In this document: positions 22,220 to 62,665 of the stretch, piece by piece
Layout: each line of letters starts with the position of its first letter
Position numbering within the stretch: the first letter of the stretch is position 1
Made by a program: the position numbers and the translations under genes
Virus record (IMG/VR): IMGVR_UViG_3300020045_008999
Location: 448,001-512,000 of that record
DNA length: 64,000 nucleotides
Source: a virus
Lineage: Duplodnaviria > Heunggongvirae > Uroviricota > Caudoviricetes
Strand: one strand, 5' to 3'
The notes under the pieces: model-generated
Told to the model about the DNA's origin: nothing
The model's database searches: none
Seen by the model: only the letters and a program-made list of their open reading frames with translations

Positions 22220-23296
22220 TTAAACTATAGATAATGTTATTTTACGAGTTAAACGATCAACAGTCAAAACCTTAACTTTTACGGTTTGTCCAGTTTGTAA
22301 TTTTTTATCACTTTTAGCCACATCGTCATTAGTTATCAAGCCGGTAGTCTCACCGTCTAAGATAATAAGTGTGCCAATTTTATTATCATCTTTTACAATC
22401 CCCGACAATTTTTGGCCCGGTGTAATAGTATCCCATAAGGTTACTTTTAAAACTTGTGTTAAAAATATTTTATTTTTAAACACCTCTTTGATATAAAATT
22501 CAATTCCAACCCCTGGTTTAATATCACTGATATTGTAATCCGGATTTAAATTACTTTTATGTATCATACCGGTTAAACATTGATTGAATTCAACAAATAC
22601 CCCAAAATCGGTAGATCCAGTTACTGTCCCGGACATTAACTCACCGTTGTTTAATCTAGAAACCGCTTCCGGTATTAATGTTTGTAAATACTTTCTTCGG
22701 CTCATTATATAAGTACCCTCATCACTAGAGAATGATTCAATACCTAATTCTAAAGATGTCCCAACAATAGCTTCTGGTGATATAAGACGGTTGATGCCGG
22801 CAAGCGTATTTGGCATGAATCCATTAAGATCAACTCCCATATAATTGAAGACTACGCTAAATCCAGCCGGTGACATATCTTTAATAAAGCCCATAACATA
22901 TTCATCAATTTCAGATGATGCCAAATGTTCATGTACTTTATTAGTGTATATTTGAGCTACACTCCCTTTGATCATGAAATTCTTTTCGAAAACTTCGGTA
23001 ATTATTACATCAACTGAATCACCAATTTCAAGAGTGGCAATTAATCTAGCTTCGGTAGTTTTATTATCGACTCTGACAAAATCTTTTAGATGACCATCGA
23101 AAAGAAAATATTCGTCATTGCTACCATAATAGTTCAGTGAAATAATATCACCCGGTTTTGGTTGATTATACTCGTGTAGATCGTACAATCCAAGCAAAAT
23201 TTTATCTTCTGCATTTAAAACTCTTTCAGAGTATCCCTTTGTACCAAACGTTGTTCCTTCATAGTCAAAATCCGGAATAATTTGCTCATTCTTCAT
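22220..23296 (-). CDS. rpsA: Ribosomal protein S1-like protein (about 4 S1 domains)
   Basis: GTVTGSTDFGVFVEFNQCLTGMIHKSNL, GFMP...IMSRRKYL, GQTVKVKVLTVDRLTRKITLS. Confidence 0.8.
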   Translation of the reverse strand: MKNEQIIPDFDYEGTTFGTKGYSERVLNAEDKILLGLYDLHEYNQPKPGDIISLNYYGSNDEYFLFDGHLKDFVRVDNKTTEARLIATLEIGDSVDVIITEVFEKNFMIKGSVAQIYTNKVHEHLASSEIDEYVMGFIKDMSPAGFSVVFNYMGVDLNGFMPNTLAGINRLISPEAIVGTSLELGIESFSSDEGTYIMSRRKYLQTLIPEAVSRLNNGELMSGTVTGSTDFGVFVEFNQCLTGMIHKSNLNPDYNISDIKPGVGIEFYIKEVFKNKIFLTQVLKVTLWDTITPGQKLSGIVKDDNKIGTLIILDGETTGLITNDDVAKSDKKLQTGQTVKVKVLTVDRLTRKITLSIV

Positions 23297-57842: not shown

Positions 57843-58580
57843 ATGATATATTTAAAAGGATTCAATGAAAGTTTAGAAAATTTACCACCTGATGGTGGAT
57901 ATTTAAAGTTAAGTTCAAATGAAATGAAAAGTTTCAGAGAACACTACAAAGTGGTAGAATATAATACTACTACTTATGCATATGCGTATAGTATGTTTGA
58001 AGAAAAATGGTTTAAAAAAATTAACCACGAAGACATTTGGTTGGATATTGATCTATTGAGTGATAATTGGATAGATGTCGAAATACAAATACAGTCGGAA
58101 CTAATGTTTTTTTTATGTGATGGTAGTGATGGATTGGAGAAATTATGTGATGACTTTGCTAAATTTATACCAGGAAAATCAATAACATCAGAAATAAACG
58201 AAAATACAACATACTCATTTCCAAATACCGGAAACTATACTAAGTTAAACCCTGATCAATTTGTGGATTTTTCAGACACATACAAACGGATTCATCATTA
58301 TGCGAATAATGTATATCATCCATTAATTGATATTTTTTTCGAAAAAGTAGTAAACGAATTACCCACTAATTCAGTATTAGTAAAAACACCAACTATGGTA
58401 AAATTTAAACAACGAAATCATACTGTAGTCAGTGTGGATTTTTATGAAGATGATTGGGTAGTGTTTAACTATTACAACTTCTTACTAGATAGTGCAATAA
58501 ACTACTATCTATGTGATGGTGAGGACGGTATAATTAAATTTTCAGCAGACTGGGATAAAAATAAACATGACATCAAATGA
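57843..58580 (+). CDS. Family B paralog (2 domains)
   Basis: MIYLKGFNES; internal INEN; LCDG twice. Confidence 0.75.
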   Translation: MIYLKGFNESLENLPPDGGYLKLSSNEMKSFREHYKVVEYNTTTYAYAYSMFEEKWFKKINHEDIWLDIDLLSDNWIDVEIQIQSELMFFLCDGSDGLEKLCDDFAKFIPGKSITSEINENTTYSFPNTGNYTKLNPDQFVDFSDTYKRIHHYANNVYHPLIDIFFEKVVNELPTNSVLVKTPTMVKFKQRNHTVVSVDFYEDDWVVFNYYNFLLDSAINYYLCDGEDGIIKFSADWDKNKHDIK

Positions 58581-59392
58581 AGCATATAATATCATTCGGA
58601 AAATTAAACGAATCCAATCACATTTATTTGCCGGCTGATGGTGATTATAAAGAATTAAATCAATCTGAGTACAATTCTTTTTTAACACAATACCCTACAT
58701 GTAAATTAGATATTACGAACTCTGCTATACTTTTAGATACTTTACAGGCATTAGCTGAAAAATGTGTTGGTGCAGCAATCAGCAATAGAGGTGGTAGTTT
58801 ATCATATAGAATCCAATCTATTACACATTGGATTGACATCGATATGCGAACAGATAACTGGTTTGCAATTGACGCTCAAGTATTATCTGATACATATAAA
58901 TACATATGTGACGGGGAAGACGGGCTTAATAAATTTATTGAAGATTTTACTGGCATTATGCCAATGGTTAAATCAATGCCTATAAAAGAATCATTGAATA
59001 ATGTCTGGCCAGCAGATGGCAAATATTCTAAATTGACCGGTGCCCAATATATTGAATTCAAAGGGTTATGTACTTACCAGTATGAAAAAGATTCAAATAA
59101 ATTAATAGTTGATTCTATTAGTTTCATTTCTAAATTGTTTTCAGATGAAAATTGTAGAATTAACCCAACAAGAAGAAGCATTGTTTTTGATACACAATAC
59201 AAATCAATGAAAATATATGGTGTGCCACATGTGGATTCTTGGTTCATATTTAGGATCATGACATTTGACACCAACCACCCAGGTAATATAGGGGCAGGTC
59301 AACCCACATCCATAGACTTATACCTATGTGATGGTGAAGACGGTGTAACTGAATTTTTGAAAGATTGTAGAGAAATAATAGAAAATACATAA
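58577..59392 (+). CDS. Family B paralog (2 domains)
   Basis: MKHIISFGKLNES; internal IKES; CDGEDG twice. Confidence 0.75.
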   Translation: MKHIISFGKLNESNHIYLPADGDYKELNQSEYNSFLTQYPTCKLDITNSAILLDTLQALAEKCVGAAISNRGGSLSYRIQSITHWIDIDMRTDNWFAIDAQVLSDTYKYICDGEDGLNKFIEDFTGIMPMVKSMPIKESLNNVWPADGKYSKLTGAQYIEFKGLCTYQYEKDSNKLIVDSISFISKLFSDENCRINPTRRSIVFDTQYKSMKIYGVPHVDSWFIFRIMTFDTNHPGNIGAGQPTSIDLYLCDGEDGVTEFLKDCREIIENT

Positions 59393-61194
59393 TGAAGTAT
59401 ATTAAAAAATTTATTAAAATCAATGAGTCTATTGATCATTTATTACCAGAAGAGGGTGGATATGCTAAACTAGGCTATCAAGAACACGGTTTATTCAGCA
59501 TCAGTTACCCAATTGATTACCAATACGATCTTCGTAGTGATATTTTAATGGATTCAATCAAAACCATGGCCGCGTTATGTGGTGATCCAGATTACCAATC
59601 AAGGACACATCTACCTCGCTTGGTATACAAGATTAATCATGATGAATCCTATGTAGATTTAAAGATGCATATGGATAATTGGATCGTTGTGACCAATCAA
59701 TATAGGGATGAGAATCATTATTTTATATGCGATGGTGAAGAAGGACTGAGTAAATTCATCAAACATTGGAATTATAATATTAGAAATAATAAAAACAATT
59801 TAACAATTTTAGAATCAGTTGACTACTTATTACCACCGGACAACAGTTACACCAGAGTAGGTGATACCAGATTTGCTGAATTTGTAAAAGAATACCCTTA
59901 TATAGAAGACGATACGTTAACACCAGAATTGAAAGATGTGATGCGAGTAATATATGAAAAATGTAGTGATGAAAATGCACATCTATCAAAGCGTGAAGCA
60001 TTATGTTCATATGTGACACCAAGTGAAAATCTATGGATTACTGCAACCGCCTCTGCACATACTGATAACTGGTATTCAATTAAATTTAAACTCGATAGTA
60101 TATATGTAAATCATGCGGCATATTACATTTGTGATGGTATTTCGGGTCTGGAAGAATTCTCACAGGACTGGACCGGATCACACCTTATACAAATTGACGA
60201 AAGTGTCTCTTATCTACCAGAAGGATCTTATTCGAAACTAGATGAAACCGACTTATTAAATTTCATAAATACCTATGGGAAACCACGTATCAATTTAGAG
60301 CTAATGGCGGAATTCAAATCTTATCTAAATACTAATGATATTATAATTATAGACCAAATATCTAGGAATGAGATTATCATAGTAGTACATGGTATGAAAA
60401 TAGCAACTAGTATTTCAGAACATACTGATATGTGGATTTCCATCGTTTATGGTAAAGATTTTTATATTTGTGATCAAGAAGCGGGAATGTATGAGTTATT
60501 CGATATGTTATTCAATAATCGTGTTTTAGAAAACGCTTCTTATTTACCAACCGGATTGTACTCAGAAATTAATGCAGATGATTGGACTAATTTCTTACTA
60601 ACATTTGGTACTGGTGACGTTGATAAACATACGATCGATACATTACTAGTTTATGCTAAAAGTATTGACATAGAACCAACTATTAAAAGCTATAATTATG
60701 GTTTCACACGACCAAATGGCGAACAGTTTTACGCAAGCGTATACAAACATGATGATCACTGGATAAGTGTACTAACATCCGATCGTGGCTTATTTTTATG
60801 TGACCAAGAAGATGGAATGATTGCTCTTTTCAGAGATGTTTTAATGCCAAATGAAAAAAATAACGAAACAATGATAACAGAAAGTATAGAAGACGACGTA
60901 GAAGATGGTAGCTATTTAGAAATTGATAGCGACGATGTTTTAAAAATATGGAAAGATTATGGACCATCGTCTTTTGATATAACTGAAATTGAACAATTAG
61001 CAGATACACTTGGTAAGGAATATTCAATCAATCGTTTTGAAAAAGGTAATATAATAACAATATATAGTCATTCACGACACGAGTCCTCACAGGTGTGTAA
61101 ATTCGATGATGGTTGGTTCATTTGTAATAATGAACCAGATGCAAATTTCCTTTGTGATCAAATTGCGGGTGTGATTCAATTTATTAAATTATAA
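59392..61194 (+). CDS. Family B paralog (5 domains)
   Basis: MKYIKKFIKINES; internal ILES, IDES, VLEN, ITES; CD(G/Q) five times. Confidence 0.8.
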   Translation: MKYIKKFIKINESIDHLLPEEGGYAKLGYQEHGLFSISYPIDYQYDLRSDILMDSIKTMAALCGDPDYQSRTHLPRLVYKINHDESYVDLKMHMDNWIVVTNQYRDENHYFICDGEEGLSKFIKHWNYNIRNNKNNLTILESVDYLLPPDNSYTRVGDTRFAEFVKEYPYIEDDTLTPELKDVMRVIYEKCSDENAHLSKREALCSYVTPSENLWITATASAHTDNWYSIKFKLDSIYVNHAAYYICDGISGLEEFSQDWTGSHLIQIDESVSYLPEGSYSKLDETDLLNFINTYGKPRINLELMAEFKSYLNTNDIIIIDQISRNEIIIVVHGMKIATSISEHTDMWISIVYGKDFYICDQEAGMYELFDMLFNNRVLENASYLPTGLYSEINADDWTNFLLTFGTGDVDKHTIDTLLVYAKSIDIEPTIKSYNYGFTRPNGEQFYASVYKHDDHWISVLTSDRGLFLCDQEDGMIALFRDVLMPNEKNNETMITESIEDDVEDGSYLEIDSDDVLKIWKDYGPSSFDITEIEQLADTLGKEYSINRFEKGNIITIYSHSRHESSQVCKFDDGWFICNNEPDANFLCDQIAGVIQFIKL

Positions 61195-61195
61195 T

Positions 61196-61226
61196 AAAAA
61201 GAGAGAAACCTTCGGTTTCTCTCTTT
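61196..61226. terminator. Bidirectional terminator with UUCG loop
   Basis: AAAGAGAGAAACC-TTCG-GTTTCTCTCTTT between the family B operon and the tRNA 3' end. Confidence 0.85.
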
Positions 61227-61230
61227 CTAG

Positions 61231-61302
61231 TTACGATACTAGGGCTCAAACCTAGGATGAGTGCGCCAAAAGCACTTGTGTTATCAACTACACCATATCG
61301 CA
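61231..61302 (-). tRNA. tRNA-Gln (anticodon UUG); CCA not encoded
   Basis: TGCGATA/TATCGTA acceptor (U1-A72), GTGT/ACAC D stem, AGTGC-TTTTGGC-GCACT anticodon arm, CTAGG-TTTGAGC-CCTAG T arm; 72 nt. Confidence 0.9.
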
Positions 61303-61304
61303 AT

Positions 61305-61338
61305 AAAAAACCAGCCAATTCAAGTGAACTAGCTGGTA
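61305..61338 (-). terminator. Attenuator terminator (3:4 helix) immediately upstream of tRNA-Gln
   Basis: ACCAGCTAGTTC-ACTT-GAATTGGCTGG followed by T6; the tRNA starts 2 nt after the U tract. Confidence 0.8.
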
Positions 61339-61365
61339 AAAAAGTAAATTAGTTTATAAATAATA

Positions 61366-61446
61366 CTAATACATATAACAGACTAGATCAGATTGTACAA
61401 TCTGTCTACTCTGGATCGATAATAATATATTATTAATATTTTTCAT
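61366..61446 (-). CDS. Putative attenuator leader peptide MKNINNILLSIQSRQIVQSDLVCYMY (3 Gln codons)
   Basis: 26-codon ORF starting 4 nt after TTTATATATA (61451-61460); CAG, CAG and CAA lie in a hairpin that competes with the antiterminator. Confidence 0.65.
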   Translation of the reverse strand: MKNINNILLSIQSRQIVQSDLVCYMY

Positions 61447-61494
61447 AATGTATATATAAAATTTCACAGCTTCCTATTTGATTATTTACGATTT

Positions 61495-61704
61495 TTACAG
61501 TTCATTTATGGATATTTCCATAACATATTCGTATTTATCTTCAATCACAACACCGGAAACCAGATTATAATAGAATACTTTAAATTCTTCCCCATTTCTG
61601 ATAAAAGTAAAACCGGTATACTCACCAACACTGGTACTAATTATCCCCACATCAGTAGTGCATGTGAAAAGTTGCTTAGATTTTTTATAAAAATTGTAGA
61701 TCAT
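61495..61704 (-). CDS. Small hypothetical protein
   Basis: 69 aa ORF. Confidence 0.5.
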   Translation of the reverse strand: MIYNFYKKSKQLFTCTTDVGIISTSVGEYTGFTFIRNGEEFKVFYYNLVSGVVIEDKYEYVMEISINEL

Positions 61705-61741
61705 TTTGTTATATTAAGATTAATTCTTGATTATTATTGTA

Positions 61742-62665
61742 TTAAATAATAACAGGAAATTCATCTTTTATACGGATACCGCCTTTAACAGTAATGTTCT
61801 TTCTATACTTGTTCCAGCCCGCAATGGTAAGTCTGATTTTATCAGCATGCGTGATTGAACGACCTTTATCCATTTTAGCATTAGATAACCTATTTCTCAC
61901 TGCTAAAATTGGGGACCCACTTGCCAAACCATCACCAACCATTAATTTGGTCAAAAAAACTTCGGCCATTACTGGATCTTTTTCTGAAAACAAATAATGT
62001 AAACCAGCAACAATACCATTTTCCAATATTGCAACCTGGTTGTTTTTAGGTAAATTGGTCTGGAAATCAACACTATCAAACAATTTAGGAATTTGTTTAA
62101 TATACCCCGCGATGTTGTGGTTCTTTAAGGTAACATGCCCCGATGTAGCAGACTTTGAATTGTTCAACGAATTGTTTTTATACTTAAAGATAAAATTGGC
62201 AGTATTACTTACCAATCTAGGGGTACTGTGTCCCGCAATTTCAGTCACATCAACAAGCGTTCGTATTTTTCCTTGGTCCATATCGTCACATGTTGCCGGA
62301 TCATAACCAATAGAAACTCGGAATGTACTAGTTACCCCAGACATTATAATTGCTCTCAATCGATGTTGGCCATTATTCATGAATCCATCCCAATCAAAAT
62401 GTATTGGATCATTGTAAAATCGCCAAGTACCGTTAAGCATAGCTGCGGCAAATTGTTTAACAAATTGGTTGTTCAGTTTACGATTGTTCTTGATATTACT
62501 CCCTATTAAGGTTTGTGCCAATTCAGGTGTGATTGAAATTGTCATTGAAGTAATTGTAACACCACCAATTACTTCAATACTTGTTGAACATCCCTGTGCC
62601 AAATGTCCCGATAACAAAGTTGTCAATTCTAACATTTTGTTGCCATTTAAATTTGTATTACTCAT
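61742..62665 (-). CDS. ParB/Srx-like N-terminal domain protein (DGQHR-type)
   Basis: NNRKL...V..FA.AM..GTW, I.FD.DG...NGQHRLRAI, DQGK.R. Confidence 0.7.
   Translation of the reverse strand: MSNTNLNGNKMLELTTLLSGHLAQGCSTSIEVIGGVTITSMTISITPELAQTLIGSNIKNNRKLNNQFVKQFAAAMLNGTWRFYNDPIHFDWDGFMNNGQHRLRAIIMSGVTSTFRVSIGYDPATCDDMDQGKIRTLVDVTEIAGHSTPRLVSNTANFIFKYKNNSLNNSKSATSGHVTLKNHNIAGYIKQIPKLFDSVDFQTNLPKNNQVAILENGIVAGLHYLFSEKDPVMAEVFLTKLMVGDGLASGSPILAVRNRLSNAKMDKGRSITHADKIRLTIAGWNKYRKNITVKGGIRIKDEFPVII

Follow-up and report, generated by a model that had tools for sequence, protein, structure and literature searches.

Candidate Leader-Peptide Attenuators Upstream of tRNA Genes in a 597-kb Tailed Phage and Related Viruses

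Introduction

How is a tRNA gene expressed when it begins two nucleotides (nt) behind a strong transcription terminator? The question is raised by a tRNA-Gln(UUG) gene on the minus strand of a 64,000-nt stretch of DNA (hereafter, the window), which comprises bases 448001-512000 of a 596,785-bp tailed-phage record (IMG/VR IMGVR_UViG_3300020045_008999; ~31% G+C) judged to be 98% complete. A sequence-only reading of the window had proposed that the gene is controlled by an attenuator, in which ribosomes stall on the Gln codons of a short leader open reading frame (ORF). In the analysis described here, this interpretation is supported by comparative evidence from sister loci and from related leaders, and the Gln unit is probably a working codon-sensing, ribosome-mediated attenuator of a tRNA gene. 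Confidence in the candidate attenuator class as a whole is higher than in the Gln unit itself.

The role of phage tRNAs has been debated for 50 years, with proposals that include codon compensation, making good the loss of host tRNAs to degradation, and evasion of anticodon nucleases (PMC10264068, PMC11555353). Attenuators that rely on leader peptides are established for trpL, hisL, pheL, leuL, thrL, and ilvL of enterobacteria, for which both a theoretical treatment (PMC1183508) and a survey of pheL (PMC3082878) are available.

Architecture of the tRNA-Gln Unit

The minus strand from 61475 to 61195 forms a closed unit of ~280 nt, in which a promoter motif, a leader ORF, a terminator, the tRNA-Gln gene, and a second terminator follow one another (Table 1); it is most likely a self-contained transcription unit. 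The promoter motif, the 26-codon ORF (Gln codons at positions 12, 15, and 18), the U6 terminator, and the tRNA gene starting 2 nt past the T-run were all found where the sequence-only reading had placed them. From the attenuator to the following terminator, tRNA-Gln is the sole gene. No separate tRNA promoter follows the first terminator, and one is impossible there, since only 2 nt separate the T-run from the tRNA.

The three helices expected of an attenuator (1:2, 2:3, and 3:4) are likewise present. The whole leader folds far better than its shuffled versions (-43.2 kcal/mol, z -5.5). Helix 1:2 (61413-61379), which contains both CAG codons, has a free energy of -14.8 kcal/mol (z -3.8) that none of 200 shuffles reached, and the terminator has a T6 tract behind its 12-bp stem (61337-61310; -17.4 kcal/mol, z -6.4). 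Segment 2 can also pair with the terminator 5′ arm (segment 3), through 12 pairs with 2 mismatches and 1 bulge, exactly as had been counted; this 2:3 helix is weak.

According to the proposed mechanism, fast reading of the Gln codons would carry the ribosome over segment 2 to the stop codon, so that the 3:4 terminator would form and RNA polymerase would halt 2 nt short of the tRNA. If the leader were not translated, helix 1:2 would form and the terminator would again form. If charged tRNA-Gln were scarce, the ribosome would stall at codon 12 or 15, inside segment 1, and segment 2 would be free to engage the terminator 5′ arm while the 3′ arm has yet to be transcribed; the polymerase would then read through and tRNA-Gln would be produced. 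The new tRNA-Gln would relieve the stall, closing a negative feedback loop on decoding capacity. This scheme presumes that the leader is translated, that ribosome and polymerase are coupled, and that stalling leads to read-through, and the trigger might, speculatively, be a mismatch in codon usage, decay of host tRNAs, or tRNA-cleaving defences.

The scheme was compared with folds in which 31 nt were masked per ribosome and the RNA was truncated short of the terminator 3′ arm. Placing the A site at any of codons 11-15 left 9 nt of the 5′ arm paired with segment 2, and with no ribosome, or with a ribosome on codons 16-26, none did. Codon 15 is separated from segment 2 by 13-14 nt, which equals the reach of a ribosome footprint. 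Codon 18 is probably not a sensor, because a ribosome positioned there would cover part of segment 2. Taken by itself, the Gln unit is suggestive and modestly beyond chance, not compelling. It is the sister loci and the related phages that, at the level of sequence comparison, raise it far beyond chance.

Promoter and Start of the Leader

The motif TTWATATATAC occurs 59 times in the 597-kb genome, nearly always 5′ of an ATG, and a relaxed version of it precedes 234 ORFs of at least 60 amino acids (aa), with a modal motif-to-ATG distance of 3 nt (63 cases). The ATG of the Gln leader lies at this modal distance, 3 nt 3′ of its promoter core. The extended form, AGGAAG-N9-TTWATATATAC, is present in exactly four copies in the 597 kb, every one of them 5′ of a tRNA leader. 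Among the short ORFs behind the relaxed motif, a terminator follows essentially only at these four tRNA loci. The leader ATGs look like genuine starts, and the leaders are predicted to be translated. An alternative GTG start at 61467 (33 aa) was discarded, as its position is 5′ of the promoter core and it has no counterpart in the three sister leaders.

The AGGAAG box (mostly AAAAGGAAG) marks only the four tRNA leaders within the 597-kb genome; in related contigs it is also found 5′ of a small Cys-rich basic ORF of ~45 aa, with the motif CKIQCKRNELKYKQR. At genome position ~539825-539770 (minus strand, outside the window), the promoter core is followed by a strong G/C hairpin and a T-run with no ORF between them, a unit that may represent a small RNA or a dead end.

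Sister Units in the Same Genome

The sequence-only reading had called for a check of whether other tRNAs of the phage are also preceded by a short ORF and a terminator, with leader codons matching the anticodons downstream, and this proved to be so at most of the tRNA loci. ARAGORN identified 18 tRNAs and a transfer-messenger RNA (tmRNA) in six loci of the 597-kb genome. Four of the five tRNA loci share one layout: AGGAAG-N9-TTWATATATAC, an ATG 3-6 nt on, an ORF of 23-35 codons, a strong terminator, and the tRNA or tRNAs. The leader of the Val-Leu-Ile-Leu-Arg-Asn-Cys-Thr locus has 28 cognate residues out of 34, 24 of them consecutive (p 2.2e-6). The Ser-Arg-Ser leader carries the motif SSSSRRS (8/22 cognate residues, p 1.5e-3), the Trp-Phe-His-Lys leader carries FKKSFKWFNH (12/33, p 1.6e-3), and the Gln leader carries QSRQIVQ (3/25, p 2.4e-2). 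Gln residues are present in the Gln leader alone among the four, and the true assignment of leaders to tRNA arrays ranks first of the 24 possible permutations.

The predicted switch recurs along with the codons. When a ribosome was placed on the matched codons in the mask folds, 6-9 nt of the terminator 5′ arm paired with a segment further down the ORF at all four loci, and no 5′-arm pairing was seen in three of the four when the ribosome was absent or late in the ORF. The duplexes between leader and 5′ arm were reached by 4, 1, 4, and 16 of 500 shuffles, the last value being that of the Gln unit.

The remaining tRNA locus (Met and Tyr, 21222-20977) and the tmRNA locus (411350-411712), both outside the window, have a TAnnTTTG-type promoter with a Bacteroidota-like -7 element. 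Neither has a leader or a terminator. Given these differences in promoter and leader, stable RNAs seem to be expressed under two regimes in this phage.

The phage encodes no tRNAs for Ala, Asp, Glu, Gly, or Pro, and these five amino acids account for just 8 of the 114 residues of the four leaders, a scarcity with p 2e-7 against the proteome and p 0.03 against AT-rich short-ORF controls. It was set aside as a signal, being mostly explained by AT-rich composition.

Leaders in Related Phages and Contigs

Viral and metagenome contigs were scanned for the promoter variant, and the loci fetched in this way were then subjected to an unbiased pass for a terminator, a tRNA, and an upstream ORF. Together with the 597-kb phage, the related contigs yielded 42 distinct leaders, which fall into about seven families: Phe/His/Trp/Lys; Ser/Arg; Asn/Leu/Thr/Val/Ile/Cys/Arg; Asp/Pro/Gln; Gln alone; Ile/Gly; and Tyr/Glu. 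The proposal that leader codons follow tRNA identity in related phages held throughout, as all 106 tRNA amino-acid types across the 42 leaders were found in their own leader, a result that 0 of 5000 shuffles reached. The summed enrichment score was 100, compared with 28 ± 7 in the shuffles, and again none of the 5000 attained it. As the loci are mutually related, the 42 leaders do not count as separate events; independence applies to the seven families, which differ in their amino-acid sets.

The structural element is also widespread. In 26 of 40 units, the leader contains a segment whose complementarity to the terminator 5′ arm lies beyond 95% of shuffles, and the median duplex between leader and 5′ arm is -11.6 kcal/mol, versus -6.6 in shuffles. 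Synonymous and non-synonymous changes within the leader families gave no sign of purifying selection on the peptides, an outcome more in keeping with codon sensing than with a function of the peptide itself, without being decisive.

These results also bear on the possibility that the Gln unit is an assembly of ordinary features, in which the terminator ends an upstream operon, the ORF is a chance occurrence in a 3′ untranslated region, and the tRNA is obtained by leaky read-through. The minus-strand genes at 63947-61495 do stop 158 nt ahead of the terminator, and three Gln codons within seven are found in 2.3% of the 2535 short ORFs of the 597-kb genome. However, the promoter motif, 3 nt 5′ of the ATG, is spaced as in real genes, the terminator 5′ arm has its complement in segment 2, the same module with matched codons precedes three other tRNA loci, and the coverage of tRNA types across the 42 leaders is complete. 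A chance assembly is, on this evidence, very improbable.

In two contigs (L020, 8000-7930, minus strand; and L093), the terminator of an Asp/Pro/Gln-type leader is immediately followed by a tRNA-like sequence whose variable arm is long. ARAGORN either makes no call for this sequence or assigns it an odd anticodon.

Units in the Cultured Phage Gundel_1

Two unannotated units of the same design are present in the Tenacibaculum phage Gundel_1 (MT732474). Tyr, Ser, Cys, Phe, and Trp abound in the first leader, which precedes Phe, Ser, and further tRNAs, and the second, with the motifs NNL, QQNNLP, and M, precedes Pro, Gln, Met, Asn, and Leu tRNAs. A 10-nt stretch of the second leader duplicates part of the terminator 3′ arm. 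The promoters of both units are of the Bacteroidota TAnnTTTG type, which points to Bacteroidota hosts for the group.

In the second array, the attenuator terminator is separated from the first tRNA (Pro) by an HNH endonuclease gene (2376-2882), whose position past the terminator would place it under the same control as the tRNAs. Two tRNA-like stretches immediately 3′ of the first terminator (~1645-1790) are unannotated and were not called by ARAGORN.

Gln Leaders Elsewhere and the Standing of the Gln Unit

A dedicated leader in front of one to three tRNA-Gln genes was found in nine contigs. Their motifs include QYQQQQQ, QQYQQQQ, FQQQQQQ, and LQQQQQ, with mostly CAA codons; runs of 4-6 Gln codons in front of tRNA-Gln arrays were noted in five contigs other than the 597-kb genome. 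The junction of T-run, AT, and tRNA is identical to that in the window. Their segment 2 contains the stop codon (…AGAUUGA…) and pairs with the terminator 5′ arm (…UCAAUCU…) with -10 to -13 kcal/mol, which matches the stability of the terminator. From a reading of the sequences, the last Gln codon lies ~11-15 nt 5′ of segment 2.

Covariation in the helices, which had been named as a check on the sequence-only reading, could be followed in part. In the related Gln family, compensatory changes maintain the 2:3 pairing: the pair CAGAUUGA:UCAAUCUG of L020 is replaced by GAGAUUGA:UCAAUCUC in L010, and in L066 the antiterminator is re-written as an 11-12-bp version. The covariation was judged from per-sequence duplexes, as a MAFFT alignment of the 9 Gln leaders had three rows mis-registered in the terminator, and it is seen in an analogous Gln family rather than in direct homologues of the window leader. 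No close homologue of the window leader itself was found whose helices could be compared with its own. A blastn search of the phage collection returned only the Gundel_1 tRNA-Gln (86% identity), no relatives of the neighbouring 307-aa protein were found in viral contigs, and an exact pattern spanning the terminator-tRNA junction had no match elsewhere.

Along with this lack of close homologues, several properties of the Gln unit weigh against regulation by stalling. The 2:3 duplex (-7.8 kcal/mol) was reached by 16 of 500 dinucleotide shuffles, and by 6 of 200 in another test; the fold of the 2:3 segment (-10.4 kcal/mol, z -1.5) is weak compared with the terminator at -17.4 kcal/mol. Equilibrium folds retained the terminator in every masked state, with a probability of 1.00. 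As the terminator always wins at equilibrium, the choice must be kinetic, as in classical attenuators. The Gln codons number just three and are non-consecutive (p 0.024). The two that are well placed for sensing are CAG, which the UUG anticodon reads only through wobble. CAA accounts for 77% of the Gln codons in the phage itself and for most of those in the related leaders. The CAG codons may have been kept for their pairing with CUG in segment 2.

Much of this evidence would also suit a decayed or constitutive version of the unit, an ex-attenuator in which the strong terminator throttles tRNA-Gln at a fixed low level and the Gln codons are a remnant. The weak 2:3 helix, the persistence of the terminator in all equilibrium folds, and the presence of only three Gln codons, two of them CAG, speak for such decay, as does the existence of relatives with far stronger Gln runs and with antiterminators as stable as their terminators. 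Nevertheless, the spacing between codon 15 and segment 2 is close to that of working-looking relatives, helix 1:2 is strong and contains Gln codons, and the unit has kept a promoter variant that is common only to the three strong sister attenuators. Decay is, therefore, regarded as unlikely, and a working attenuator remains the preferred interpretation of the Gln unit.

Comparison with Known Systems

The predicted attenuators resemble those of the trp/his type in having a short leader ORF with regulatory codons inside segment 1, the 1:2, 2:3, and 3:4 helices, and a U-tract terminator; the sister loci mix several amino acids per leader, in the manner of the multivalent ilv and thr leaders. They differ from the attenuators of amino-acid operons in that the regulated product is a tRNA gene or array, not a biosynthetic or synthetase gene, and in that the tRNA being sensed is also the output, which would give direct feedback on decoding capacity. 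They are also phage-encoded, with an mRNA predicted to be leaderless, or nearly so, and to start from a phage promoter, and a single phage leader can list up to seven or more amino acids. The E. coli pheST attenuator (pheM leader), which controls phenylalanyl-tRNA synthetase, likewise acts on the translation apparatus, but its target is a synthetase protein, it responds to one amino acid, and it is cellular.

T-box riboswitches bind uncharged tRNA directly and need no ribosome. They likewise sense tRNA status and control terminator read-through 5′ of translation-related genes, which lends some plausibility to a ribosome-independent mode of antitermination, whether by uncharged tRNA in a T-box-like manner or by a protein factor acting, for example, via the AGGAAG box, with the ORF being incidental. 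The AGGAAG box, specific to these promoters in the 597-kb genome, is indeed unexplained. Still, Rfam gave no match to a T-box or other riboswitch at E ≤1 in 60800-62000, where no specifier or T-box sequence is present, and leaders that serve up to eight or more tRNAs cannot each hold a specifier and a T-box. Furthermore, the cognate codons lie in the reading frame opened by an ATG with fixed promoter spacing and closed by a stop within or adjoining segment 2. Antitermination independent of the ribosome is accordingly given little credence. Sub-threshold Rfam matches to the small RNAs VrrA and RsaOG (E 0.1-0.9) were taken as chance.

Leader-peptide attenuation of tRNA genes, in phages or in cells, was not found described in full-text searches of the literature or in recent papers on phage tRNA function. 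Attenuation of tRNA genes is probably a variation on the trp/his-type mechanism, with a new class of target.

Coordinates and Neighbouring Genes

The features of the Gln unit and the positions of the sister units are listed in Table 1. On the plus strand of the window (58577-61194), two adjoining ORFs of 271 and 600 aa are composed of repeated modules of ~120 aa, each of which closes on a motif like ICDGEEG; neither ORF has a Pfam match. The end of the 600-aa ORF adjoins the terminator that closes the tRNA-Gln unit. Pfam gave no match for the neighbouring ORFs of 69, 83, 121, 307, and 600 aa. Elsewhere in the window (22220-23296, minus strand), a 358-aa protein with RNA-binding domains of the ribosomal-protein-S1 type (PF00575, E 1.9e-16) represents a further translation-related gene of the 597-kb phage.

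Table 1. Features of the tRNA-Gln unit (window coordinates) and positions of its sister units (genome coordinates).
Feature	Position	Strand	Basis or remark
AGGAAG upstream box	61470..61475	-	9 nt 5′ of promoter core
Promoter core TTTATATATAC, phage promoter-like motif	61450..61460	-	promoter function predicted from the motif
Promoter motif of the sequence-only reading, TTTATATATA(C)	61460-61450	-	sequence
Leader ORF, 26 codons + TAG	61366..61446	-	ATG at 61446, TAG at 61368-61366
Gln codon 12, CAG, within segment 1	61411..61413	-	sequence; ribosome-mask fold
Gln codon 15, CAG, within segment 1, 13-14 nt 5′ of segment 2	61402..61404	-	sequence
Gln codon 18, CAA, 5′ edge of segment 2	61393..61395	-	sequence
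Segment 1	61398..61413	-	pairs with segment 2
Segment 2, anti-terminator strand	61376..61395	-	pairs with segment 1 or terminator 5′ arm
Segment 3, terminator 5′ arm	61326..61338	-	folding
Segment 4, terminator 3′ arm + T6 tract	61305..61321	-	folding
tRNA-Gln, anticodon UUG, without encoded CCA	61230..61302	-	ARAGORN; Rfam RF00005, 53.4 bits
Second hairpin terminator, 16 pairs + T-run, directly 3′ of tRNA	61195..61229	-	closes the unit
Sister unit	64185-63971	-	genome coordinates, outside window
Sister unit	69752-69939	+	genome coordinates, outside window
Sister unit	423862-423645	-	genome coordinates, outside window

Implications

It is rather likely that many tailed phages, ranging from 50-kb contigs to the 597-kb genome and including Gundel_1, gate each tRNA array by a leader that tests its codons, with the tRNAs being made only when decoding slows. 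If this is true, such a phage would measure the decoding speed of the codons read by the gated tRNAs and answer with tRNA synthesis. The leader would then show which codons the phage expects to become limiting and would reveal directly what purpose phage tRNAs serve, opening that question to experiment; Gundel_1 and its host, Tenacibaculum sp. AHE14PA, offer a cultured system for testing. For annotation, the rule would be to seek small functional ORFs 5′ of phage tRNA arrays, and the leaders could serve as compact codon-specific sensors for synthetic biology. The units would constitute a regulatory class so far undescribed, in which leader-peptide attenuation is extended from metabolism to the translation machinery.

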